A stretch of DNA of 64,000 nucleotides from Mobula hypostoma. Its lineage: Eukaryota. The stretch covers positions 163,372,001 to 163,436,000 of the forward strand of contig NC_086097.1 of NCBI RefSeq assembly GCF_963921235.1. The letters run 5' to 3'. The position numbers and the translations under genes are program-made. Shown here in pieces: positions 7,196 through 49,391 of the stretch (its first letter is position 1; each line of letters starts with the position of its first letter). The notes beneath the pieces are model-generated. The model was not told the origin of the DNA. It saw only the letters and a list, made by a program, of their open reading frames with translations, and made no database searches.

Positions 7196-8172
7196 CCCTT
7201 GACCATTCTCACCCACCTGGTTTCACCTATCGCCTTCCTGCGAGCCTCCTTCACCTCCCCTCACCTTTTTATTCTGGCATCTTTCCCCTTCTCAGTCCTG
7301 AAGAAGGGTCTTGGCCTGAAACATCAACATTTTATTCTTTTCCATAGATACTATAGGTACATTTAATGTCAGAGGAATGTATATGATATACATCCTAAGA
7401 GTTTTTTCCTTTGCAAACATCCATGAAAAGTGCCCCAAAGAATGTATGACAGTTAAATGTTAGAACCCCAAAGCCCCCCCAGCTCCCCCTGTCTCACATA
7501 GGCAGTAGCAAAGCAATGACCCCCTTCCCCCACCAGCAATAAAGCATCTGCACCCTCCATTGAGCACTCAAGCATGCAGCAAAGCATCAATAAAGACAGT
7601 GCCCCAACGACTACTCGTTCACCCAGTATTTGACATACCATAGACTGTTTCCCCAATGATGGAAAAAGAGGTGTCCCTGTTTGACGGTGAAGGGAGATGT
7701 GACAAAATGACTCGCCGATTTATGGTGATAAGTCTGCTGCATCGCTTTTTCCGAGCTCTGTGCCCAAAGATCTTGGGTCTCTGGGCACACAGCCAGCTTG
7801 CTGCTTTCGATCTTCCATCTCTCATGACGCACCAGACATTGGCACTGACCTAGAGTCTGCCCGCCTCCAGAGCCATGAAAATCTGGTACCCTGAAGGCAT
7901 GCTAGTTTTCCAGACTGCGTCCTTGGCTTATCGAAAAGCGCCAAATCGTGAGACCCCAAGAGCGGGTTCCATTTCAGCAAAGAACCAAAGTCAGAGTGTA
8001 ACTCCAGGTCAGGGTCTTCAAAATAACCCAAAAAGGAAAGAAATGTTAAAGATAGAAATAGAGCTGTTTTCAAAGACGCAAGCAAAGGAATTGCAGTTGG
8101 GTGCCATTGTCCTCCTAAGCTGTGCCCTCTATACTGCCTGACCTGAGTTTCTCCAGCACTTTGTGTGTTGCT
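7196..8172 (+). mobile_element. Older PLE 3' end with degenerate hammerhead, split by the 7356-8118 insertion
   Basis: 'cagtc ctgaaga agggtcttggcct gaaacatc' at 7293-7325; resumes at about 8130 with 'tactgcctgacctgagtttctccagcactttgtgtgttgct'. Confidence 0.75.
7356..8118 (-). mobile_element. Unclassified non-autonomous (SINE-like) element; second partial copy at 18327-18440
   Basis: 'ggtacatttaatgtcagag.aatgta....atatacatcct' shared with 18336-18376; no coding capacity; interrupts a PLE fragment. Confidence 0.6.
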
Positions 8173-24154: not shown

Positions 24155-27100
24155 ATATAGAACATAGAACAGTACAGCAAAGTACAGGCCCTTCGGCCCA
24201 CAATATTGTGCTGACCCTCAAACCCTGCCTCCTAGATAACCCCCCCACCTTAAATTCCTCCATACACCTGTCTAGTAGTCTCTTAAACTTCACTAGTGTA
24301 TCTGCCTCCACCACTGACTCAGGCAGTGCATTCCACACAGCAACCCTCTCTGAGTAAAAAAAAAACCTTCCTCTAATATCCCCCTTGAACTTCCCACCCC
24401 TTACCTTAAAGCCATGTCCTCTTGTATTGAGCAGTGGTGTCCTGGGGAAGAGGCGCTGGCTATCCACTTGACCTATTCCTCTTATTATCTTGTCATGTCT
24501 CCTCTCATCCTCCTTCTCTCCAAAGAGTAAAGCCCTAGCTCCCTTATCTCTGATCATAATGCATACTCTCTAAACCAGGCAGCATCCTGGTAAATCTCCT
24601 CTGTACCCTTTCCAATGCTTCCACATCCTTCCTATAGTGAGGCGACCAGAACTGGACACAATACTCCAAGTGTGGCCTAACCAGAGTTTTATAGAGCTGC
24701 ATCATTACCTCGCGACTCTTAAACTCTATCCCTCGTCTTATGAAAGCTAACACCCCATAAGCTTTCTTAACTATCCTATTTACCTGTGAGGCAACTTTCA
24801 GGGATCCGTGGACATGTACCCCCAGATCCCTCTGCTCTTCCACACTAGCAAGTATCCTGCTGTTTACTTTGTACTCTGCCTTGGAGTTTGTCCTTCCAAA
24901 GTGTACTAACTCACTTCTCCGGGTGAACTCCTTCTGCCACTTCTCAGCCCACTTCTGCATCCTATCAATGTCTCTCTGCAATCTTCGACAATCCTCTACA
25001 CTATCTACAACACCACCAACCTTTGTGGCATCTGCAAACTTAACAACCTACCCTTCTACCCCCACATCCAGGTCGTTAATAAAAATCACAAAAAGTAGAG
25101 GTCCCAGAACGGATCCTTGTGGGACACCACTAGTCACAATCCTCCAATCTGAATGTACTCCCTCCACCACGACCCTCTGCCTTCTGCAGACAAGCCAATT
25201 CTGAATCCACCTGGCCAAACTTCCCTGGATCCCATGCCTTCTGACTTTCTGAATAAGCCTACCGTGTGGAACCTTGTCAAATGCCTTACTAAGATCCATA
25301 TAGATCACATCCACTGCACTACCCTCATCTATATGCCTGGTCACCTCCTCAAAGAACTCTATCAGGCTTGTTAGACATGATCTGCCCTTAACAAAGCCAT
25401 GCTGACTGTCCCTGATCAGACCATGATTCTCTAAATGCTCATAGATCCTATCTCTATGAATCTTTTCCAACAGCTTTCCCAGACGTAAGGCTCACTGGTC
25501 TATAATTACCCGGACTATCCCTACTACCTTTTTTGAACAAGGACACAGCATTTGCCTCCCTCCAATCCTCCGGTACCATTCCCATAGACAACAAGGACAT
25601 AAAGATCCTAGCCATAGGCTCAGCAATCTCTTCCCTCGCCTCGTGGAGCAGCCTGGGGTATATTCCGTCAGGCCCCGGGGACTTATCCGTGCTAATGTAT
25701 TTTAATAACTCCAACACCTCCTCTTACTTAATATCAACATGCTCCAGAACATCAACCTCACTCATATTGTCCTCACCATCAAGTTCCCTCTCATTGGTGA
25801 ATACCGAGGAGAAGTATTCATTGAGGACCTCGCTCACTTCCACAGCCTCCAGGCACATCTTCCCACCTTTATCTCTAATCGGTCCTACCTTCACTCCTGT
25901 CATCCTTTTGTTCTTCACATAATTGAAGAATACCTTGGGGTTTTCCTTTACCCTACTCGCCAAGGCCTTCTCATGCCTTCTTCTTAAGCTCCACTCTTGC
26001 TTCCCTGTATTCCTCATTAGACCCATCTGATCCTTGCTTCCTAAACCTCATGTATGCTGCCATCTTCCACCTGACTAGATTTTCCACCTCACTTGTCACC
26101 CATGGTTCCTTCACCCTACCATTCTTTATCTTGCTCACCAGGACAAATTTATCCCTAACGTCCTGCAAGAGATCCCTAAACATCGACCACATGTCCATAG
26201 TATATTTCCCTGCAAAAACATCATCCCAATTCACACCCGCAAGTTCTAGCCTTATAGCCTCATAATTTGCCCTTCCCCAATTAAAAATGTTCCTGTCCTC
26301 TCTGATTCTATCCTTTTCCATGATAATGCTAAAGGCCAGGGAGTGGTGGTCACTGTCCCCCAGATGCTCACCCACTGAGAGATCTGTGACCTGACCCGGT
26401 TTGTTACGTAATACTAGATCTAATATGGCATTTCCCCCTCGTCGGCCTGTCAACATACTGTGACAGGAATCTGTCCTGGACACACTTAACAAACTCTGCC
26501 CCGTCCAAACCCTTGGAACTAATCAGGTGTCAATCAATATTCGGGAAGTTAAAGTCACCCATGATAACAACCCTTTTATTTTTGCACCTTCCCAAAATCT
26601 GCCTCCCAATCTGCTCCTCTGTATCTCTGCTGCTACCAAGGGGCCTATAGAATACCCCCAATAGAGTAACTGCTCCCTTCCTGTTCCTGACTTCCACCCA
26701 TACTGACTCAAGAGGATCCTGCTACATTACCCACTCTTTCTGTAGCTGTAATAGTATCCCTGACCAGGAATGCCACCCCTCCTCCCATTTTCCCCCCTTC
26801 TCTATCCCTTTTAAAGCACTGAAGTCTAGGAATATTGAGAATCCATTCCTGCCCTGGTGCCAGCCAAGTCTCTGTAATGGCCGCTACATCATAATTCCAT
26901 GTATGTATCCAAGCTCTCAGTTCATCACCTTTGTTCCTGATGCTTCTTGCATTGAAATACACACACTTTAACCCTTCTACCTTACTATCTTTACACACTT
27001 TATTCTGCTTCTCTTTCCTCAAAGCCTCTCTATATGTTAGATCTGGCTTTACTCCATGCACTTCTTTCACTGCTCTATTGCTCCAGGTCCCATCCCTCTT

Positions 27101-27960
27101 GCAAATTAGTTTAAACCCTCCCAAACCATGCTCGCAAACCTACTTGCGAGGATATTGCTCCCCCTCGAGTTCAGGTACAACCCATGCAATCTGTACAGGT
27201 CCCACCTTCCCCAGAAGAGATCCCAATGATCTAAAAATCTAAAACCCTGCTCCCTGCACCAACTCCACAGCCACGCATTCAACTGCCATCTCTTCCAATT
27301 CTTACCATCACTGGCACGTAGTACTGGCAGCAATCCTGAGAATGCCATCCTTGAGGTCCTGTTCTTCAGCCTTCTGCCTAGTTCCCGAAACTCTCACTTC
27401 AGGACCTCATCCCTCTTCCTGCCTGTGTCGTTGGTGCCAACATTTATCACGACTTCTGGTTGCTTTCCCCCTCGTACCAGGATGTCGTGCACCCAGTCAG
27501 AGACATCCTGGACCCTGGCACCCGGGAGGCAACAAACCATGTGGGTGTCCTTGTCACGTCCACAAAATCTCCTGTCTGATCCCCTGACTATAGAGTTTCC
27601 AATGACGACAGCTCTCCTCTTCTCCGTCCCACCCTTCTGCACCACAGGGTCAGACTTAGTGCCGGAGGCCCTGCCACCGTGGCTCACACCTGGCTGGTCA
27701 TCCCTGCCAACAGTATCCAGGATGGTAAACTTATTATTCGGGGAATGGCTACAGGGGTGCTCTGCACTACCTGTCTACTCCCCTTCACTTTCCCCCCTCT
27801 GACTGTCACCCAATGACCTGCTTCCGACAGCCAAGGTGTGACTACCTCCCTGTAGCTCTCATCTATGACTGCGTCATTCTCCCTTATGAGTCGAAGGTCA
27901 TCCAGCTGCTGCTCCAGATTCCTTACACGGTCTTCCAGATCGCCCAGCCGCATGCACTTC
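24155..27960 (-). mobile_element. Near full-length degenerate CR1 LINE: ORF1 (coiled coil + SGNH esterase) and ORF2 (APE + RT)
   Basis: ORF1 'RVRNLEQQLDDLRLIRE', 'VVIGNSIVRG', 'CLPGARVQD', 'VGTND', 'LDHWDLFW'; ORF2 'YFNARSIRNK', 'ITETWL', 'SDH', 'KSPGPDGI', 'QHGF', 'DLSKAFDKV', '[10 protein letters not shown]'; (gttctat)n tail; several frameshifts. Confidence 0.97.
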
Positions 27961-28970
27961 TGATAGATTCTTGGATCTGTTCTGGTAAACCTTTTTAGGA
28001 TATTTATATTATTCTTAAATTGTGTTAACCAGAAATGAACAGATTTCTTCAAAATACACAAGCTTGCATATCACGCAAACAAAGCCCGATTTTCCTCTTC
28101 AATATCAAGAAAGAAATGGACGTGGAGAGTGTACTGGTTACCTATGGCCTTCCGGTGAATCAATTCAAATCTGAGGTTGAATAGTGCTTTTTCCTTTTCC
28201 TAATGTTATATCCTTTGACAAAGGACCCTGGGTTATTTCATCTGTGCAAGATTCCTTTATAAACATTCCCTCCAGTCTTTCAAAGCACTGCTCTGAATTC
28301 ACTTTAAGTGAACACAGCAGGTTAGGAGAAGGTGAGTTAATGTCAGTGACCCTTCATTAGGATCTGAAATATCTCCTCTTCTCTCTCTGAGAATAATCTC
28401 AGTTTTTATAGTATAATTTATTTGCTAATTATTTGGACCCTAACTTGACACATCTATATCCTTTGAGGACTTTATGTGAACTTTACAACTTACTTCTCCT
28501 TCCTGTCTGACCTGCTGAGTATTTCAAGAATTTTCTTGTATATTTCAAGTTTGCAGCATCTATACTATTTTTGTGTTGTATTGGTATTTACCTCATCCAA
28601 ACAATGTTTCTAATCCATCAGCAAGGTTTTCCCTTTACTGGCTTGTATGGGCTTTTTTAAAAATCTTCCTGTCATTGATACATCTGTAGTATTGGTAATC
28701 AAAGGAGGAGTTGCCACTTAAGGCGCTCATGTTTTCAGTCACTGACGCACCCTGGGTCACAAAATTGGCTATAGCATTGATATATCCAGGGATCCTGGAG
28801 TCCACGTTCATTGCTGTCTGAAAGTGGATGCACAAATCGATAGGGTGGTGTAGAAGTTGTTGGCACTGAGCTCAAGAGAGAGGAAGTAACATTGCAGTGT
28901 TATAAAACTTATTTCGGCCACATCTGGAATGATTTCCCTGTTATAGGAATGAAGTAGAGGTTTTGGAGAG

Positions 28971-29191
28971 AACGCAAACAACAGGAATTCTGCAGATGCT
29001 GGAAATTCAAGCAACACACATCAAAGTTGCTGGTGAACGCCGCAGGCCAGGCAGCATCTCTAGGAAGAGGTACAGTCGACGTTTCAAGCCGAGACCTTTC
29101 GTCAGTCCTGACGAAGGGTCTCGGCCTGAAACGTCGACTGTACCTCTTCCTAGAGATGCTGCCTGGCCTGCTGCGTTCACCAGCAACTTTG
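28971..29191. mobile_element. Young PLE-derived fold-back element (84-bp arms, 2-nt spacer)
   Basis: 29022-29105 is the reverse complement of 29108-29191 with 3 mismatches; sequence matches PLE end 37602-37735. Confidence 0.95.
29103..29140 (+). ncRNA. Minimal type I hammerhead ribozyme
   Basis: CAGUC-CUGACGA-A-GGGU(CUCG)GCCU-GAAA-CG-UC^GACUG: full core, 5-bp stem I, stem II tetraloop, minimal palindromic stem III. Confidence 0.85.
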
Positions 29192-29445
29192 TCAGGGTGC
29201 TACCTCGGTGGAGGTTCGTCAGGATGCAATCTCAAACCAGGGTTATTTTCTCTGGATGGTGGACTAATGGGAAATCTGACAGGTTTATAGGATTACAAGA
29301 GACATAGACAGTCAGTATATTACTACCAGGGCTGAAAAGTCTAATACAAGAGAGCATGCATTGAAGGTGAGAGGGGGCAAGGTCAAAGGAGATGTGCAGG
29401 ACAACATTTTTAGACAGAGTGGTGTGTACCTGGAATGTGCTCCCA

Positions 29446-30882
29446 CAGACTGTACTTCTACTCCCATCATATTTGCAGAGACAGAGGACCGCACCATCAG
29501 TGGTGATGAATGGTCAAGGGATGCAGAGCAGTGCTTGCAGGACTACTTCAACTTAGTAAACGGAACCACATTCTAGATTTAGCTTTGGATCTGAATAAGT
29601 ATGCCATAGTTGTCACTGACTTCATCAAGACCTGTCTGGATAAGAGTGTGCCTGTGAGAACATACCAGATATACCCAAACCAGAAGCCATGAACCCTGAG
29701 TCTGCAGAGGACTAAATCTTTGGCGTTCAGTATTGGTGATCCAGACTCTACAATAAGTCCATGTACAATCTATGGCAAGCTATAACCGTGTGAATCCCTG
29801 CAGCATCTGGCAACCCTGTGGTATCTGTCGCAGAGGTTGATATCTTTCAGGAGGATGAATCCTCACAAGGCATTAGGCCCCACTGGTGTATCTTGTAGGG
29901 CACTGAAAGCCTCTGCAAAACAGCTGATGGGAGCGTTCGAGGCCATCTTCAATCTCTCACTTCTGCAGGTAGAGGTTCTCACCTGCTTCAAAAGGCATCA
30001 GTTTCCAAGAAGAGCAGGATAAGCTGCCTCAGCAAATATTGCCCAATAGTGCTCACGTCAACTGTGAAGTGTTTTGAGAGTTTGATCATGGCTAGAATTA
30101 ACTCCTGCCTCAGCAAGGTCCTGGACCCACTGCAATCTGCCTTACAGCCACAGTAGGTCTACAACAGATGCCTCTCCACTTAGCCTGGGATCATCTAGAT
30201 AATAGTAATACCTAGTTCAGGCTACTGTTTATTGATTACACCTTACTGTTCAATACCATCATACCCTCAGTCCTAATCAATAAGCTTCAAAACCTGAGCC
30301 TTTGTCCTTCTCTCTGCAATTGGATCCTTGACTTCCTCATCAGGAGATCAGTCAGTGTGTATCAGAAATAACATCCCTTCCTTGCTGGCATACAGCACAG
30401 GTGCACCTCAAAGATGCATACTTAGCCTGCTGCTCTACTGTCTCCACATCCATGACTGTGTGGCTAGGCACAGCTCAAACACCAACCAAAAATTTGCCGA
30501 TGCCACAATGTTGTCGGCAGAATCTCTGATGGTGATGTGGAGCCGTACAGGAGTGAGATCGATTGGCTGGTTGAGTGGTGTTGTAGCAACAACATTGCAC
30601 TCGATGTCTGTGAGACCAAAGAATTGATTATGAACTTTAGGAAGGGGGAAGTCGAGGGAACACACACAGTCCTCATCGAAGGATCAGCAGTGGGTAAAGG
30701 AGAGCAAATTCAAGTTCCTGTGTGCCATTGAATCTGAAGAGCTATCCTGGGCCCAACATATTGATAGAAGCACAAAGGATGCATGCCCATGACTGCTTTG
30801 TTGTACTATACTACACTATACTGTTGCTGTAAAACAAAAAAATTCTCGACATGTGTCAGTGACAATAAACCTGATTCTGATT
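29446..30882 (+). mobile_element. Rex1/Babar LINE fragment (RT), internally deleted
   Basis: 'YPNQKP', 'KALGPTGV', 'IFNLSL', 'TGAPQRCILS', 'KFADAT', 'WCCSNNIALDVCETKELI'; 'aataaacctgattctgatt' tail. Confidence 0.88.
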
Positions 30883-30964
30883 TCAAAAATGAGGTGGTGA
30901 TGGTGGAGGCACGTACAATAGAGTAGAGGGTAAGAAGCTCATTGATGTGGTAGTGTATTTAAAA

Positions 30965-31164
30965 ATGCAAACACGAGGAAATCTGCAGATGCTGGAAATT
31001 CAAGCAACACACATCAAAGTTGCTGGTGAACGCAGCAGGCCAGGCAGCATCTCTAGGAAGAGGTACAGTTGACGTTTTGGGTCTCGGCCCGAAACGTCAA
31101 CTGTACCTCTTCCTAGAGATGCTGTCTGGCCTGCTGCGTTCACCAGCAACTTTGATGTGTGTTG
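30965..31164. mobile_element. Young PLE-derived fold-back element centred on hammerhead stem II
   Basis: Arms 31005-31081 / 31088-31164; 15-bp flanking direct repeat ttgatgtRgtagtgt at 30942-30956 and 31162-31176. Confidence 0.93.
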
Positions 31165-31435
31165 ATGTAGTAGTGTGGTGGTTTGCTCAATCGGGGTTCA
31201 ATTCCCACTACTGTCTGTAAAGAGCTTGTTCATTTTGCCTGTGACCACATTTACGGGTGCTTCAGTTTTCTTCCACATTCCAAAATCGGATGGTCAGGGT
31301 TAGTGAGTTGTTGGTGCTCGAAGCATGGTGACAGCTGCAACCTGCCCAGCACAATCCTTGCAGATTTGATCTGATGCAAAATGATGTGTTTCACTGTATG
31401 TTTCGAAGTACATGTTACAAATAAAGCTAATCTTT
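31165..31435 (+). mobile_element. V-SINE-like tRNA-derived SINE
   Basis: B box 'ggttcaattcc', 'ctgtctgtaaagagcttg...cgggtgcttcagttttcttccacattccaaa', 'aataaagctaatctt' tail. Confidence 0.75.
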
Positions 31436-34481: not shown

Positions 34482-34690
34482 GGAGATGCAAGAAACTACA
34501 GAATATGGAATCTGGGGCAACATACAAAAAACTGTAGGAACTTGGTGGGTTATGCAGCATTGAGGAAGGGAAATAGTCACATTTTAGGTCAAGACTGTTC
34601 TTCTGGACCAGAAACATCAACTGTCCATTTCCCTCTAAAGAAGCTGCCTGACCTGCTGAGTTCTGCAGCTTTTTGTATGTTTTTCTAGCC
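34482..34690. mobile_element. Decayed PLE-derived fold-back element
   Basis: Inverted arms 'acatacaaaaa...gcagcatt...gggaaat' / 'atttccct...agctgc...ttttgtatgt' around a 'gaaacatc' remnant. Confidence 0.65.
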
Positions 34691-36577: not shown

Positions 36578-37700
36578 AGGTTTAGATGAACCTGAGATGG
36601 CTAACTGTCTGTTGATGCACAGACAATAGAAACAGTCATGCAAAAAAAAAGTGCAACTGTACTACTTTGGGAAGGGACAGACATTGTCGAGTTGGAAAAA
36701 AAAAAGCAGAAAATGGTTGACATTCACTGGTTCATAAGTGGTGAATACCAAGAGATAATAACATAGAGTTTAAAAAAGCAGAAACGACTAGCTGCATCGG
36801 AAAGATAGATGCATTCGATTGCACAAGTGATGACTGTATTTGTTTACTGAGTGAACTGAGTGGTATTTTAAAGCAAATTAAATGGCCAAAGCAAAGTGAG
36901 TGCCAGTGTTGCTGAGTATGTTAGATGGAAAGATGTACAGTTTGCTTGGAAGTTTGACTTCTGCAACTAATCCAGCCATAATGTATTTTGCTGATATCAT
37001 GAAAGTAGTGCCAGAACATTTAGAACTGAAACCATTGATTGTAGAATGCTTTGGGCTTCATAAGCAGAATCAAAAGGTGAGTCTACCTTGGTGCACATGG
37101 TTGAATTGAAGAGCATGGTCAGTTCAGTGGGCTTAATGACACACTGAGAGATTGTTTAGTTAGTGGAATCTTACAAGAAAACATTCAAAAATGGCTCCTA
37201 ACTGAAGTACAACATTTAAAAGAGCAATTGAAACACCTGTATCAATGGAAATGGCATACAGAGACACAATTGAGTTGCAGTCAGGAATGAAAGTGAGCTT
37301 GAATAAAATTCCAAGTTCTAAACAGAACAAATTGTGTTACTGTTGTGGCAGGGGCTCACATACACCAGACCAATGCAGATTTATCCACAAAGCTTACAGA
37401 AAATGCAATAAAGTAGGACACATACAAAGAGCATGTCAGGTAGACAAAAATAAATGGTCTGCACAGGGAAGAGAAAAATTAAAGTCAATTTACAGTTTCA
37501 AAAGGACCACTAATCTGCATGCTGCTGATGAAAAATCTGATGCTAAGTGATACAGGACTGGGTAGCCTTGAAATTTACAATGTGAAACTAACAATAGACA
37601 AGCAAACAACAGGAATTCTGCAGATGCTGGAAATTCAAGCAACATACATCAAAGTTGCTGGTGAACGCAGCAGGCCAAGCAGCATCTATAGGAAGAGGCG

Positions 37701-37738
37701 CAGTCGACGTTTCAGGCCGAGACCCTTCGTCAGGACTA
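37701..37738 (-). ncRNA. Minimal type I hammerhead ribozyme in the PLE 3' region
   Basis: Sense strand UAGUC-CUGACGA-A-GGGU(CUCG)GCCU-GAAA-CG-UC^GACUG. Confidence 0.87.
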
Positions 37739-38024
37739 ACTGAAGGAAGAGTGAGTAAGGGATTTGAAAGCTGGAGGGGGAGATGCAAAATGATAGGAGA
37801 AGACAGGAGGGGGAGGGATAGAGCCGAGAGCTGGACAGGTGATAGGCAAGGGGATACGAGAGGATCATGGGACAGGAGGTCTGGGAAGAAAGACAAGGGG
37901 GGGGGTGACCCAGAGGATGGGCAAGAGGTATATTCAGAGGGACAGAGGGAGAAAAAGGAGAGTGAGAGAAAGAATGTGTGCATAAAAATGAGTAACAGAT
38001 GGGGTACGAGGGGGAGGTGGGGCC

Positions 38025-40757
38025 TTAGCGGAAGTTAGAGAAGTCAATGTTCATGCCATCAGGTTGGAGGCTACCCAGACGGAATATAAGGTGTTGTTCC
38101 TCCAACCTGAGTGTGGCTTCATCTTTACAGTAGAGGAGGCCGTGGATAGACATGTCAGAATGGGAATGGGATGTGGAATTAAAATGTGTGGCCATTGGGA
38201 GATCCTGCTTTCTCTGGCAGACAGAGCGTAGATGTTCAGCAAAGCGGTCTCCCAGTCTGCGTCGGGTCTCACCAATATATAAAAGGCCACATCGGGAGCA
38301 CCGGACGCAGTATATCACCCCAGTCGACTCACAGGTGAAGTGTTGCCTCACCTGGAAGGACTGTTTGGGGCCCTGAATGGTGGTAAGGGAGGAAGTGTAA
38401 GGGCATGTGTAGCACTTGTTCCGCTTACACGGATAAGTGCCAGGAGGGAGATCAGTGGGGAGGGATGGGGGGGACGAATGGACAAGGAAGTTGTGTAGGG
38501 AGCGATCCCTGCGGAATGCAGGGGGGGGGGAGGGAAAGATGTGCTTAGTGGTGGGATCCCGTTGGAGGTGGCGGAAGTTACGGAGAATAATATGTTGGAC
38601 CCGGAGGCTGGTGGGGTGGTAGGTGAGGACCAGGGGAACCCTATTCCTAGTGGGATGGTGGGAGGATGGAGTGAGAGCAGATGTACGTGAAATGGGGGAG
38701 ATGCGTTTAAGAGCAGAGTTGATAGTGGAGGAAGGGAAGCCCCTTTCTTTAAAAAAGGAAGACATCTCCCTCATCCTAGAATGAAAAGCCTCATCCTGAG
38801 AGCAGATGCGGCGGAGACGGAGGAATTGCGAGAAGGGGATGGCGTTTTTGCAAGAGACAGGGTGAGAAGAGGAATAGTCCAGATAGCTGTGAGAGTCAGT
38901 AGGCTTATAGTAGACATCAGTGGATAAGCTGTCTCCAGAGACAGAGACAGAAAGATCTAGAAAGGGGAGGGAGGTGTCGGAAATGGACCAGGTAAACTTG
39001 AGGGCAGGGTGAAAGTTGGAGGCAAAGTTAATAAAGTCAACGAGTTCTGCATGCGTGCAGGAAGCAGCGCCAATGCAGTCGTCGATGTAGTGAAGGAAAA
39101 GTGGGGGACAGATACCAGAATAGGCACGGAACATAGATTGTTCCACAAACCCAACAAAAAGGCAGGCATAGCTAGGACCCATACGGGTGCCCATAGCTAC
39201 ACCTTTAGTTTGGAGGAAATGGGAGGAGCAAAAGGAGAAATTATTAAGAGTAAGGACTAATTCCGCTAGACGGAGCAGAGTGGTGGTAGAGGGGAACTGA
39301 TTAGGTCTGGAATCCAAAAAGAAGCGTAGAGCTTTGAGACCTTCCTGATGGGGGATGGAAGTATATAAGGACTGGACATCCATGGTGAAAATAAAGCGGT
39401 GGGGGCCAGGGAACTTAAAATCATTGAAAAGTTTAAGAGCGTGAGAAGTGTCACGAACATAGGTCGGAAGGGATTGAACAAGGGGTGATAAAACAGTGTC
39501 GAGGTATGCAGAAACGAGTTCGGTGGGGCAGGAGCAAGCTGAGACAATAGGTCGGCCAGGACAAGCAGGTTTGTGGATCTTGGGTAGGAGGTAGAAACGG
39601 GAAGTGCGGGGTGTGGGAACTATAAGGTTGGTAGCAGTGGATGGGAGATCCGCTGAACGGATAAATTCGGTGATAGTGTGGGAGACAATGGCCTGGTGCT
39701 CCTTAGTGGGGTCACGATCGAGGGGTAAATAAGAGGAGGTATCCGCGAGTTGTCGCTGTGCCTCAGCAAGGTAGAGGTCAGTACGCCAGGCTACAACAGC
39801 ACCCCCCTTATCAGCGGGTTTAATAATAAGGTTAGGATTAGTGCGGAGGGAGTGGAGAGCAGAGCGTTCCGAAGGAGTGAGGTTGGAATGGGGACAAGGT
39901 GCGGTGAAGTCGAGACGGTTGATGTCCCGTCGGCAGTTGGCAATAAAGAGATCCAGAGCAGGCAGAAGACCAGAGCGGGGTGTCCATGAAGAAGAGGAGG
40001 GTTGAAGACGGGAGAAGGGGTCATCGGTGGGGGTGGAAGAGTCCTTGCCGAAGAAGTAGGCTCGGAGACGGAGACAGCGGAAGAAAAGTTCCGCATCATG
40101 GCGAACACGGAACTCACTGAGGTGTGGTTGAAGGGGGACAAAGGTGAGGCCCTTACTGAGAACAGAGCGTTCTGCCTCCGACAGTTGAAGGTCGGAGGGG
40201 ATGGTAAAGACCCGGCACGGATGAGAGCTGGGATCAGAGGGGGGAGGGGGGAGGCTGGGTGTGTCAATGGAGAGGGGAGGGTTGGGGTGAGAGGAAGATG
40301 GAGCCTCTGAGGGCCCAGGAGCTGACGGTGGGATCTGAGGGAGACGGGATTGCAGAGTATTGGTGGGGGAAGGGGAGACGGGAGTCACAACAGCAGCACA
40401 TAAAGACCCGGCCTGGAGTTCAAGGCTGGAATCTTGAGAGCTGGGATCAGAGGGGGGAGGGGGGAGGCTGGGGGTGTCAGTGGAGAGGGGAGGGTTGGGG
40501 TGAGAGGAAGATGGAGCCTCTGAGGGCCCAGGAGTTGACGGTGGGATCTGAGGAAGACGGGGCTGCGGAGTGGTGGTGGGGGAAGGGGAGACGGGAGTCA
40601 CAACAGCAGCACATAAAGACCCAGCCTGGAGTTCAAGGCTGGAGTCGCAGTTGGTGGTTGCGCAATCGCTGTGAAGGTGTCCATGGTTGTTGCTGGAATC
40701 CGGGTTTTGAATATGTCCTGAGGTGTTGGAGCCGCCGAGATCAATGGCAGGAGCCAA
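38025..40757 (-). CDS. PLE polyprotein: reverse transcriptase + Cys-rich linker + GIY-YIG endonuclease (N-terminally truncated, no ATG start)
   Basis: 910 codons with no stop; 'IKPADKGG', 'FYLLPKIHK', 'GRPIVS', 'MDVQSLYTSIP', 'GVAMG', 'YIDD', 'FLD', 'YYKPT'; 'CKRNKCYTC'; 'VIYCVRCSRCGLLYIGETRR...RFAEH'. Confidence 0.93.
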   Translation of the reverse strand: MAPAIDLGGSNTSGHIQNPDSSNNHGHLHSDCATTNCDSSLELQAGSLCAAVVTPVSPSPTTTPQPRLPQIPPSTPGPSEAPSSSHPNPPLSTDTPSLPPPPSDPSSQDSSLELQAGSLCAAVVTPVSPSPTNTLQSRLPQIPPSAPGPSEAPSSSHPNPPLSIDTPSLPPPPSDPSSHPCRVFTIPSDLQLSEAERSVLSKGLTFVPLQPHLSEFRVRHDAELFFRCLRLRAYFFGKDSSTPTDDPFSRLQPSSSSWTPRSGLLPALDLFIANCRRDINRLDFTAPCPHSNLTPSERSALHSLRTNPNLIIKPADKGGAVVAWRTDLYLAEAQRQLADTSSYLPLDRDPTKEHQAIVSHTITEFIRSADLPSTATNLIVPTPRTSRFYLLPKIHKPACPGRPIVSACSCPTELVSAYLDTVLSPLVQSLPTYVRDTSHALKLFNDFKFPGPHRFIFTMDVQSLYTSIPHQEGLKALRFFLDSRPNQFPSTTTLLRLAELVLTLNNFSFCSSHFLQTKGVAMGTRMGPSYACLFVGFVEQSMFRAYSGICPPLFLHYIDDCIGAASCTHAELVDFINFASNFHPALKFTWSISDTSLPFLDLSVSVSGDSLSTDVYYKPTDSHSYLDYSSSHPVSCKNAIPFSQFLRLRRICSQDEAFHSRMREMSSFFKERGFPSSTINSALKRISPISRTSALTPSSHHPTRNRVPLVLTYHPTSLRVQHIILRNFRHLQRDPTTKHIFPSPPPAFRRDRSLHNFLVHSSPPSLPTDLPPGTYPCKRNKCYTCPYTSSLTTIQGPKQSFQVRQHFTCESTGVIYCVRCSRCGLLYIGETRRRLGDRFAEHLRSVCQRKQDLPMATHFNSTSHSHSDMSIHGLLYCKDEATLRLEEQHLIFRLGSLQPDGMNIDFSNFR
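40222..40645. repeat. In-frame 213-bp tandem duplication in the PLE ORF
   Basis: Units begin at 40222 and 40435; encode two 71-aa Pro/Ser-rich units 'DSSLELQAGSLCAAVVTP...SDPSS'. Confidence 0.95.
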
Positions 40758-43136
40758 GCAATAAGGCTTACACCAGAAGTGAACAGCAAATTAATTAACC
40801 TGGAATTGGACACTGGCTCAGCTGTTTCAATCATTCCACAAAATGAGTTTGAATGACATTTCAAAGATACTAAACTGAAGCATGCAGATATTCAACTAGG
40901 AACTTGTACTGGAGAAAAGGTAACTCCTGTGGGAATGACATTTGTAATAGTGTAAGAGTATAATAGTATAATACAACAGCCAGCAAGCCACATTGGGCTT
41001 GTATGAGGGCAAGCATTATGGGGATGTAGTTATCACAGCCATTCATAACTTAATTGGAGACCAATCCAAAACTTGCATGCCACATCCCCTGCAACAGAGA
41101 AAACTTAAAGCGAATTAAGTACTGGATAATGCCACAGCACTGTTCAAGGATGGCATTGGAAAACTCAAACATACCAGGGTAAAATAGTGTTAAATAAAAA
41201 TGCCAACTGAAGGTTTACAAGGCCTGACCAGTTCCTTGTACATTCTGTAATAGTCAGTGAGCTAGATGACATGGAGGCTAAAGGAATTCTGTCCAAGGCT
41301 GAGCTCATGATCCATGCAAGTGGTGCTAATAGCCAAGAAGAATGGGTCCCTCAGATCCTGTGGTGAATTTAAGGTCACCATCAACCCAGTACTGAAAGTC
41401 GATCAATACCCTCTGCTCAGGATAGAAGATAACTTTCCAAACCATTTTGGAGAAAAACTGCAGTAAAGTGGACTGAGCTGAGGTCTATCTAGATGGAGAT
41501 GGGAAAAACACTGACAAAGGGCTTTATTGCTTTGATAGGCTGATTTTTGGAGTAGCACCTGCATGTGCACCTTGGCAGGAAGCTATGGACCAGGTGCTAC
41601 AAGGCTGTTCAGTACTGTTACCTGGATGACCTCATTGTTACTGTTAAGAATGACAAGGAACTTCTCCAAAATCTCAAGATAGTGTTTTTTTTAAAGTTAG
41701 AAGACTATGGGCTCAGAGCATGATGCTACAATTGTGAATTCTTTAATCGAAGCATCATTTACTGTGTCACTCCCTTGATGCACAAGATTTACACAAGTGT
41801 GCTGAGAAAATTTCAAGCAGTAGTGAATGCCCCAAAACCAAAAGACATCACAGTTTTGGACCATTTTAGGATTTGTCATTTACTGTAGGAGGTTGCTGGC
41901 AAACGTGGCTACTGTGCCCCACCCCTTGAACTCATTCCTATAGACCGGGAAGAAATGGCAATGGACAAAGCAGTGTGAGGTGGCCTTCAAAAAGGTTAAA
42001 GGAAATGGTGATGTCAGACACTGTACAGATACATTATGATCCACATCATATGGTGATGCTTGTCTGTAAAGCCTCACCTTACGGTATAGGTGCAGTCATG
42101 TCACATGTTCTGAGTGATGGAAGTCAATGCCTTTGCATAACATTCCTTTACCACTGCAGAGAAAAATTACACACAGATTGACAGAGAAGCATTGAGTCTG
42201 GTTTGCATGTAAAACATCTCAATCATTACTTGTATGGGAGAAAGTTCACTCTCATTACTGAATATCAACCACTAGTGCCCATTTTCAATCCACAGAAGGG
42301 TGTTTCACTAAGAGCAGAGGCACAAATGAGAGATGAGCTCTGCTTCTTGGAGGACACAATTACAAGACGGAATTCAAGAGGATGACTAATCATGGGAATA
42401 CTGATGAATGTCCCATTTACCCTTGGAAAATTAAATAACTGAAACGTTTCCAAAAGAGGACACTCCTCTAACGTATTCTCCCTAATGAAACTAGAGGGCC
42501 TCCCTGTTATGGCAGAGATGATCCAAAGTGAAACCAGAATGGATCCTACACTGTCTGGATTTTGTAGTGGAAACTCCAGTTCCCCCATTTTTACCAGTGC
42601 CGGGATGAACTTGCCCTTGAATGGGTTTGTGTTACTTTGGGACTGAGTTGTTGTAACATTCAAGCTGGGAGCTAACATGTTGGAGCTGTGTAGCTGTCAT
42701 CTAGGCATGGTCACAGTGAAAGCATTGGCTCAAAGCTTTGTCTGGTGGCCTGGGATAGATCAGATCGAGCAGCTTACCATGGATGGTTCAGTCTGCCAGC
42801 AAGTCTAGAGAATGGCATCCAGAGCTGTCAGAACCACCACTTGCAGCCCCAGTCAACTCCTATAATCACCACCACGGAGGAGGCCTCAGAATACATGATG
42901 GTTTCACAGCCACAAGTCTCACCTACCAAGTAGAACAAACTCCCCTTGTCAGGAAAGGCTTTATCTCACAAGGGTAAGAAATCCTTCACAGCGATTAAAT
43001 CTTTAGATCTGAATGGGACAATCTAAAATTTACTATAATGCATATGTCTATATTGTAGTTGTCTTATGTAGTATACTGTGTATATAGTTGAGGTGCATTC
43101 TATATTAAGTTGGAGTTTATTGCTAAGCAGAGAGCA

Positions 43137-47068: not shown

Positions 47069-48368
47069 TTACACACCTACAAACAATCACCAAAACATAG
47101 TAGCAGCAACACAGTTTGGAAGCCAGAGAGAACTTTTCCCACGCTCTTATCTGTTATCTGCTGCCTTACCAGTATCCCCAATGGCAATTTCATTTGAGCT
47201 CAGAGCTTGGGCTGGAGCCTGGACTTCCCTCTTGGTCAAGTTCAGAACCACAACAGCATCTGTAATTTGGCCAGGAAGCCATTGGGATATTTTAGTCCTG
47301 TAATTAAAATAATTTTCTAACTTTGTCGCACGCTGGGCTTCTGTGAGCTTGATGACTGCTGCTTGGCATAACTGGGAGGCCTGGAACTTAAAAAAGATGG
47401 CAAGAGCTGGTTCTCTGCTTTTTGCACCTTTTTTTGAAGTTTATTAGTAGTAGAAATAACAGAATCCAACAGTCAGTGAAATGCAAAGGCCACTGACTAT
47501 GCAGTTTGACTCAAAATTCCAATTTGTGCATTACTAGTTCATCCATTTTAAATTCAAAAATATTAATGAAATAAGGCTCTGTGAATGCAGTAGATCTCCA
47601 GAGCAATACAAGTACTTTAACAGATGCAATCAATCAAAGATCTTTTAGAGTTTCCTTTCCTTTGCTGTGGTAACTGTTCTTTCTGGAAGGAGGAATCCAG
47701 ACCTAACTTTCTTTGTCTGTCCATACACTAAATGAGATGCACTAAATGGCAGTCAGGAGGGAACAGACATTGTCTTCTAGGTCATGTCATTCTGTATTCT
47801 GGCATTGAAAAAGATTACCACACATCATTATGCATGAGTGTTTAATAAAAAGCATCAACTTCACACACCACATGGAAACCACATTCCACCTGTATGATTA
47901 ATTCATACTAGCCAGCAGGCAGTTAAGTCAAGTGGAACAGGAATTAAAGGAGGTTAGCTTCCAATTACTGACTTTATTGCAAGATAAGGGCACAACTTCA
48001 TTCTTCAGGAGTTTCCTATAAACACAATTGAGTTTGAAAAGTGGTATATTAACCCTTAATCCTCCAGTGCCATTCAACAAACCAGAAATTGCTTCGAGTT
48101 GAAACTCGTGATAGGTTGATGCTGTTCCAGTGATCTGTTTGAAGTACTGTCATCAATTTTCATCAAGACCTGATCACTGACAAGATAACATAAAACACTA
48201 TTTGTGCACATCCAAATGCTTTTGCTACAGTGTGGATAAGTGGCTTACAGTTTCCATATTCGTAAGAGTCACAGAAATTTCATGGATTAAAAAAAAACAG
48301 CCTTATCTAATTTACATCAAAGTTGCTGGTGAACGCAGCAGGCCAGGCAGCATCTCTAGGAAGAGGTA

Positions 48369-48406
48369 CAGTCGACGTTTCAAGCCGAGACCCTTCGTCA
48401 GGACTA
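48369..48406 (-). ncRNA. Hammerhead ribozyme motif (weakened stem II)
   Basis: UAGUC-CUGACGA-AGGGUCUCGGCUU-GAAACGUC^GACUG. Confidence 0.75.
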
Positions 48407-48933
48407 ACTGAAGGAAGAGTTAGTAAGAGATTTGAAAGTGAGAGGGGGAGGGGGAGATCCAAAATGATAGGAGAGGACAGGAGGGGGAGGGATGGAGCCA
48501 AGAGCTGGACAGGTGATTCGCAAAGGGGATATGAGAGGATCATGGGTCAGGAGGTCTGGGGAGAAAGATGGGGGGGGGTGGACCAGAGGATGGGCAAGGG
48601 GTATAGTCAGAGGGCCAGAGGGAGAAAAAGGAGAGTGAGAGAGAGATGCCCCACCTCCCCCTCGTACCCTATCTGTTAATTATTTTTATACACACATTCT
48701 TTCTCTCACTCTCCTTTTTCTCCCTCTGTCCCTCTGACTATACCCCTTACCCATCCTCTGGTCCACCCCCCCCCCCATCTTTCTCCCCGGACCTCCTGTC
48801 CCATGATCCTGTCATATCCCCTTTGCCAATCACCTGTCCAGCTCTTGGCTCCATCCCTCCCCCTCCTGTCCTCTCCTATCATTTTGGATCTCCCCCTCTC
48901 ACTTTCAAATCTCTTACTAACTCTTCCTTCAGT

Positions 48934-48971
48934 TAGTCCTGACGAAGGGTCTCGGCTTGAAACGTCGACTG
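48934..48971 (+). ncRNA. Hammerhead ribozyme motif (weakened stem II)
   Basis: UAGUC-CUGACGA-AGGGUCUCGGCUU-GAAACGUC^GACUG. Confidence 0.75.
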
Positions 48972-49391
48972 CGCCTCTTCCTAGAGATGCTGCCTGGCCT
49001 GCTGCGTTCACCAGCAACTTTGATGTGTGTTGCTTGAATTTCCAGCATCTGCAGAATTCCTGTTGTTTGCTTATCTAATTTACTTCCTTTAAAACAAGAT
49101 TCTAATTATAAAAGGTCAAATTTGTGGAAAGAGATCACAAAATCCCCAGTAATATTCCTGGCATCCTGTGCAGCTAAAAAGAGAATCTGACTAATTCTGA
49201 AATGGAAACAATCGTCCTGTCTATAGAATCAACATTCCCTGTATTTTACGGGTAAAGATTGTTTTAGTGGCAGACTAATCAGTGTTTCGCTAGTTAGTGA
49301 GATGATCCCGATCAAGTGATTGGAGTTTATAAATCTTAAGGGCACCTTTGTTATTGGATGGTCAGTGGTGCTTGAAAAATAAATCAATAAA

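Follow-up and report, generated by a model that had tools for sequence, protein, structure and literature searches.

The palindrome at 29 kb of the window (the whole 64,000-nt stretch of Mobula hypostoma DNA that was analysed) very probably consists of the truncated 3' end of a Penelope-like element (PLE) and, head-to-head with it, a second copy of this end that is inverted and lacks the tail. The two were likely joined in one insertion, and the native minimal hammerhead of the element is predicted to be locked off in the palindrome. The features of this insertion and of related copies are presented in Table 1.

Structure of the insertion and its host DNA

A near-perfect 170-bp palindrome with 84-bp arms, three mismatches and a 2-nt spacer had been described in the initial annotation, and both the self-comparison of the window and the fold shuffles bore this out. 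The arms were 96% complementary, differed at 29041C/29172T, 29087A/29126C and 29097T/29116G, and were separated by the dinucleotide TC. The RNA fold of the palindrome resulted in -168.1 kcal/mol (z -24.6), a value equalled by none of 200 shuffles, and the DNA fold in -106.1 (z -26.1). The palindrome is far beyond chance. Extrusion of a cruciform by the DNA is plausible, as for any such palindrome.

The whole insertion was determined to span about 28974-29191, including on the left a tail of 48 nt that had been overlooked previously. The same tail occurs at 37602-37649, at 49023-49070 and, slightly altered, at 30967-31014; the right arm lacks it.

Table 1. Coordinates and strands of the 29-kb insertion, its flanks and the related copies in the window.
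Feature	Position	Strand	Description
Left host flank	28868-28970	+	3' region of a decayed LINE; aligns to 24726-24665 and 22268-22235
Element tail, 48 nt	28974-29021	-	Left end only; outer limit uncertain by ~3 nt (28971-28974)
Left arm	29022-29105	-	5'-truncated element end running on from the tail; hammerhead core and stem II, stem I broken
Junction	29104-29107		AG (29104-29105) matches both arms (microhomology); TC (29106-29107) is the native sense sequence of the right arm; axis is that of the native imperfect hairpin
Right arm	29108-29191	+	Inverted copy of the element end without tail
Minimal type I hammerhead (predicted)	29103-29140	+	Stem I 29103-29107/29136-29140; CUGACGA 29108-29114; unpaired A 29115; stem II 29116-29127; GAAAC-GUC 29128-29135
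Right host flank	29192-29444	+	Same LINE resuming past a gap of 14-19 nt
Sister palindrome, 31 kb	30959-31164		77-nt arms; spacer of 6 nt corresponding to the region of the stem II loop; complete tail at the left end only; TSD of 15 nt, 1 mismatch
Parent copy, 5'-truncated, autonomous	37602-40754	-	RT, CX4CXXC linker, C-terminal GIY-YIG; same hammerhead and tail at the 3' end
Sister palindrome, 48 kb	48314-49077		Arms ~333 nt; spacer ~51 nt; tail right only; TSD of 14-17 nt

The host DNA is a decayed LINE which we take to be CR1-like, as did the initial annotation. The earlier statements that no target site duplication (TSD) was visible and that a few host bases were missing were both confirmed. 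The best match between the left and right flanks was 9 nt with one mismatch, located away from the ends of the insertion. In two paralogous LINE pieces, the aligned flanks are 18-19 nt apart; as 4-5 of these bases may still be present, the host loss amounts to 14-19 nt. This size is derived from only two of the four CR1-like paralogs, for which both sides could be aligned, the 11-kb and 31-kb ones having aligned too poorly. A paralog of the host DNA at the insertion site is the decayed LINE copy at 24258-27139 (-), with remnants of an endonuclease (26711-27139) and an RT (25051-25491), detected by Pfam as Exo_endo_phos and RVT_1. No clear host exon was detected in the window in a scan for which 16 of 32 long frames and one shorter frame were considered and 16 frames were scanned; the Pfam matches were RT, LINE endonuclease, ALKBH8_N, presumably a LINE-associated motif, and one weak DUF4899. 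At 2603-2717, two direct copies of 57 bp (98%) lie 1 bp apart.

Assignment to Penelope-like elements

The BLAST search of the region against the window gave the same sequence at 30959-31164, from 37602 onward and at 48314-49077, together with two old relics related to the element end, at 7292-7328 and 34602-34669 (75-89% over 37-68 nt). The 3' end of the copy at 37602 (the parent) was 92% identical to the tailed arm over approximately 145 nt (28974-29117). Its stop-free frame, 38025-40790 (-), comprised 921 aa from stop to stop and matched RVT_1 (E 2e-5) and GIY-YIG (E 4e-4), both below the curated cut-offs (24.8 vs 29.6 and 21.1 vs 22.6, respectively). The translation contained a DKG motif (KPADKGG), two cysteines between GIY and YIG (GVIYCVRCSRCGLLYIG) and, before the nuclease, a linker CKRNKCYTC that agrees with the CX2-5CxxC motif of Neptune/Nematis. 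In the accessible text of PMC8557442, the DKG motif, the GIY/YIG cysteines and the CX2-5CxxC linker define endonuclease-positive (EN+) PLEs and the Neptune/Nematis type. Since the parent has the DKG, the cysteines and the CX4CXXC linker, it belongs by these definitions to the EN+ PLEs of the Neptune/Nematis type, and a 'Poseidon' label considered for the family was dropped on the same grounds. Judged by its motifs, the 29-kb insertion is thus the 3' end of an EN+ PLE of Neptune/Nematis type, an assignment which does not separate Neptune from Nematis.

The flanks of the parent carried a duplication of 7-10 nt (read by eye) and no inverted piece. The parent is a young copy in which an internal stretch of 212 bp is repeated in tandem (40222-40433 and 40435-40646, 95%). 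It sits in an apparently decayed element which we take to be Ty3/gypsy and in which a gag-protease-like frame (37206-37550) had no Pfam match.

The family is abundant: 85,322-134,344 contig records per run were counted on a 2.8-kb stretch, other repeats included. At 31013, the tail gives way to other sequence in several hundred contigs of each run, which suggests a second abundant family with a related end. A 22-nt pattern of the family gave no matches in metagenome contigs and none in viral contigs.

Sister palindromes in the window

Of the four young insertions of the family in the window, three were head-to-head palindromes; no two of these share a centre, and the full tail is found at a single end of each. 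The tail-less ends retained 0 (29 kb), 10 (31 kb, right) and 4 (48 kb, left) of the 48 tail bases. Read in the hammerhead sense, every copy terminated with the same 84 nt past the core followed by the 48-nt tail. In the 48-kb palindrome, a 764-bp insertion, each strand carried one intact native hammerhead. The arms of this palindrome have one variant in common (CTT in stem II) and differ at a two-base variant (GTAC vs GCGC) for which the other copies are divided as well, hinting that the arms may derive from different templates. In the 31-kb palindrome, the left TSD copy is separated from the tail by about 10 AT-rich bases (30957-30966); in the contigs, the loose ends ahead of the tail were A-rich, which fits an AT-rich target preference.

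This layout has been published for PLEs, and the 29-kb locus is one more copy of a known pattern. As far as the accessible parts of the papers go, an inverted 5'-truncated copy adjoining the 5' end and a tail of 30-40 bp at one end were described in PMC8557442 and PMC8969392. Palindromes at inverted junctions were interpreted as self-priming in PMC3846280, where TSD-less copies are also reported, and dual hammerheads on opposite strands, 100-700 bp apart, were found in Schistosoma (PMC4209133).

The sister copies bear on two other explanations of the palindrome. It is improbable, though the best surviving of the alternatives, that the palindrome was made after insertion. In that case, repair would have trimmed or corrected a longer inverted insertion like the 48-kb copy, or a copy with the native imperfect hairpin, into a near-perfect palindrome, with loss of the host bases at that stage. 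Quasi-palindromes are the usual substrate of template-switch correction. The axis at 29 kb does coincide with a native quasi-palindrome, and the absence of a TSD together with the loss of 14-19 host bases sets this insertion apart from the other three copies, the TSDs of which were 15 nt (31 kb), 14-17 nt (48 kb) and 7-10 nt (parent). However, the 31-kb copy is alike in size and layout and has its TSD intact, and the divergence of the arms is similar in the three palindromes (3/84, 2/77 and 9/335 at 29, 31 and 48 kb, respectively), giving no sign of a later event. The left junction was also found in the left contig of a second organism.

It is very unlikely that the palindrome is a non-autonomous element, similar to a MITE, SINE or retrozyme, which multiplies as a whole. 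The outer sequence is indeed common to three palindromes within 64 kb and the family is very abundant, but the centre and the inner end are unique to each palindrome, the TSDs are long and variable, and there are no tandem direct units. MITEs have inverted repeats at both termini, a fixed short TSD and uniform copies. As the tail is present on one end only, the termini here are not inverted repeats, and this feature, the three different centres and the long variable TSDs ruled out a MITE.

The hammerhead motif

The CUGANGA...GAAA...GUH core with helices I and II was present on the plus strand at the junction, with a 4-bp stem II, a palindromic ACGU at 29131-29134 and a predicted cut after 29135; this layout is that of the minimal motifs in the accessible text of PMC4209133. 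The search with the core pattern gave five motif matches in the window, all in the Penelope-like family, while shuffles gave 0.14. The initial annotation had placed the inversion axis within the 5' strand of stem I and had reported a perfect CAGUC/GACUG helix on the plus strand and the loss of the two core-proximal pairs in the minus-strand copy. All three points were reproduced, with five Watson-Crick pairs in the plus-strand stem I, the GUC ending at 29135, and A.G and G.A at the core-proximal positions of the minus-strand copy.

The further proposal that the junction rebuilds a complete hammerhead did not hold. The native 5-bp stem I, TAGTC/GACTG with a distal U.G pair, was already present in the parent and in both 48-kb arms, i.e. 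in all three copies reaching that far. The net effect of the junction was the change of one distal stem I pair from U.G to C-G, with a modelled gain of ~1.7 kcal/mol per site (-15.9 vs -12.5 for two sites in the dimer model). Because the AG at 29104-29105 fits both arms, forming a 2-nt microhomology, the join regenerates native bases. In simulated junctions (8 start points with 13 spacers each), at least five pairs were always obtained when the sense arm started at least 5 nt ahead of the core. With a start 4 nt ahead, at least five pairs were formed with 8 of the 13 spacers and a perfect stem with 4 of the 13; with a start 2 nt ahead, five pairs were formed with 1 of the 13, which is the microhomology register seen at 29 kb. 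As for completeness, there is no stem III and GAAACGUC leaves no loop. Without stem III the motif is a minimal hammerhead that would need to act as a dimer. A double-hammerhead dimer can be drawn via ACGU, but in the model it is not the lowest-energy dimer. The accessible text of PMC4209133, like reviews, describes no monomer cleavage and low dimer cleavage for minimal motifs, and that of PMC11167929 states that the hammerhead of Anolis Poseidon needed protein in order to cleave and was not required for insertion. Judged by its sequence, the motif is the predicted native minimal ribozyme of the element.

No Rfam matches at gathering were obtained across the window; the hammerhead probably escaped detection because it lacks stem III. 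At E up to 10, the stretch 28900-31300 gave eight matches to hairpin-type miRNA and weak snoRNA models and none to a hammerhead. A microRNA precursor was rejected, as mir-5681 (51 vs 88) and mir-3926 (42 vs 82) scored under gathering and are generic hairpin matches. In the left arm, an apparent compensation within stem II (AAG/CUU) was also considered and dropped: C was the majority letter at 29097 in the contigs, and a different stem II register was preferred.

Folding of the RNA

It had been suggested that the RNA could fold either as one long hairpin or as a ribozyme. Nearest-neighbour folding did not support this choice. Forcing stem I with a free core in the 170-nt RNA cost +51 kcal/mol relative to the hairpin, in a method that omits the tertiary energy of the core and disfavours the active fold in native copies too, though not by 51 kcal/mol. 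With the ribozyme fold so far above the hairpin, no two-state switch is expected. In the RNA 29095-29150, the pairing probability of stem I was 0.003, since the leftover left arm pairs with the core. Both stems were formed only by RNAs starting at about 29103, with probabilities of at least 0.93 for stem I and ~0.9-0.97 for stem II. The two 29-kb motifs lie on opposite strands, the nearest other plus-strand motif is 20 kb off, and the 31-kb copy has no CUGACGA. According to these models, the hairpin would keep the hammerhead locked in an inactive state, and the copy, if transcribed, would give double-stranded RNA and not a cleaving ribozyme. With no coding capacity and no partner hammerhead on the same strand nearby, the copy was likely dead on arrival.

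It is accordingly hard to credit that the junction restores a working hammerhead and that the locus has been maintained, for some function, as a switch between the two states of hairpin and ribozyme. The plus-strand core bases are all intact with a perfect stem I, RNA from 29103 is predicted to form stems I and II, and the modelled dimer is 3.4 kcal/mol more stable with the junction. Against this stand the one-pair change from the native motif, the missing stem III, the distant same-strand partner, the folding values given above and the location of the locus within decayed LINE DNA. No RNA run with the stretch was found among the 21 listed, in a search of DNA kind that is silent on expression.

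Sequencing support for the palindrome

The read evidence consisted of Logan contigs from four runs. In two runs of one sample, possibly the source of the assembly, contigs identical to the window were detected over 28600-28995 and 29165-29368; these enter the element by 22-25 and 27 letters, respectively, which is below the 31-letter bridging rule. In two runs with a second organism label, the left junction was present with 13 differences and 5 gaps in ~400 nt, near the 3.6% between the arms. Among the contig matches listed, there was no piece over the centre of the palindrome, and under the second label neither the right junction nor the centre. The element is read in antisense where the left contig runs into it and in sense where the right contig runs out, so that an inversion must lie between them.

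An assembly or fold-back read artefact, for which the missing centre pieces, the outer junctions under the 31-letter rule from what may be the assembly's own sample and the trouble that inverted Penelope structures cause in assemblies (accessible part of PMC8557442) could be cited, is the least credible explanation, since the two ends have opposite orientations, the host LINE is collinear across the insertion and the arms are unequal at three sites (the 29087 variant being found in the 48-kb copy too), where a fold-back read would give identical arms, and the sister copies have TSDs.

Proposed origin of the inverted copy

The family identity, the layout, the native stem I, the 2-nt microhomology and the host deletion were shown; for the insertion of the truncated 3' end and its inverted copy, we infer the following steps. 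The GIY-YIG nuclease of the element would cut both host strands, and reverse transcription would begin at an outer (tail) and an inner start site, leaving one end tailed and the other tail-less. The synthesis might stop after ~90-130 nt at the native imperfect hairpin that spans stem I and the core. The ends could then be joined via AG/CT, through either a fold-back that primes itself or the annealing of two short cDNAs, the sequence fitting both, and 14-19 target bases would be lost during repair. In the accessible text of PMC11167929, the Poseidon protein cut and extended both strands in vitro from two RT start sites bounding the tail; as this mechanism concerns a Poseidon element, its use here is an extrapolation. 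The formation of inverted copies is called undefined in the accessible parts of PMC8557442 and PMC11167929.

In each of the three palindromes the arms are almost equally long, which speaks for a fold-back step and against two truncations independent of each other. At 29 and 31 kb the tail-less arm contributed the spacer, at 48 kb the tailed arm. Because of this different origin at 48 kb, a single fold-back of the first cDNA does not cover all three palindromes; they may have arisen by annealing of two cDNAs or by fold-back of either one.

The axis of the 29-kb palindrome is also that of an imperfect 10-bp hairpin predicted for the native sequence, a hairpin that buries the CUGACGA core, and in the native folds the hairpins of the hammerhead region pair this core. 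Since the axis coincides with a core-burying native hairpin, the junction perfects the off-state and does not restore an on-state. Over the last 429 nt of the parent, 3 of 353 axes were as good as the 29-kb axis in both sense RNA and sense DNA; the match was weaker for the cDNA strand (14 of 353, and 12 of 116 in the last 130 nt), although it is this strand that would fold. The 31-kb axis, which is the stem II loop, gave 7, 10 and 28 of 353 and was weaker with the 48-kb arm as the template, and the axis scan of the parent gave no hairpin at the 48-kb axis. The test was post hoc and covered three junctions under three energy models; two of the three axes fit. Among the contig joints, 7 of the 15 listed (1559 more exist) link 28995-29069 to 29104-29113, with a short side of 18-30 letters; as the sense part of the reference begins at 29104, which biases the joints, they were not taken as evidence of a hot spot. 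No description of a fold-back axis set by a hairpin was found in the PLE literature covered, which included few subscription papers.

Comparison with known elements

The closest resemblance is to the insertions of EN+ PLEs with an inverted pLTR and a tail (accessible parts of PMC8557442 and PMC3846280). [quoted passage not shown] The 29-kb copy differs in its length of ~220 nt, the near-equal arms and the 2-nt spacer; its tail is 48 nt compared with the 30-40 quoted there, a target deletion of 14-19 nt replaces the TSD, and the 5'-truncated parent in the window is without a direct upstream pLTR, full-length masters having pLTRs in direct tandem.

The minimal type I hammerheads of metazoan PLEs (accessible part of PMC4209133) share with the 29-kb motif the absence of helix III, the palindromic ACGU, a helix I of 4-5 bp and the unpaired base 5' of helix II. 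The helix II of the Schistosoma motifs is 7-8 bp, whereas it is 4 bp with two G.U pairs here, and the 29-kb motif is, by contrast, buried in an 84-bp hairpin. Non-LTR retrozymes (accessible part of bioRxiv 10.64898/2026.07.22.740005) are likewise short, non-coding and PLE-derived with a type I hammerhead, but they are tandem direct repeats with at least two hammerheads on the same strand, whereas the 29-kb motifs lie on opposite strands. The Drosophila Penelope inverted repeats described as siRNA sources (accessible part of PMC3681739) are similar in that an inverted repeat would give double-stranded RNA if transcribed.

Significance of the inverted copies

The 29-kb copy is one dead copy of an abundant family, and the locus alone is of little weight; the value lies in the family. 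Short palindromes of this kind keep the junction at single-base resolution, and their axes, spacer strands and arm variants could separate fold-back from the joining of two cDNAs. As a tentative and on balance doubtful proposal, the native core-burying hairpin and stem II might act as points of stalling and self-priming, with junctions recurring at both axes throughout the genome; the products would then be antisense-locked hairpins, which could feed small-RNA silencing of the family.
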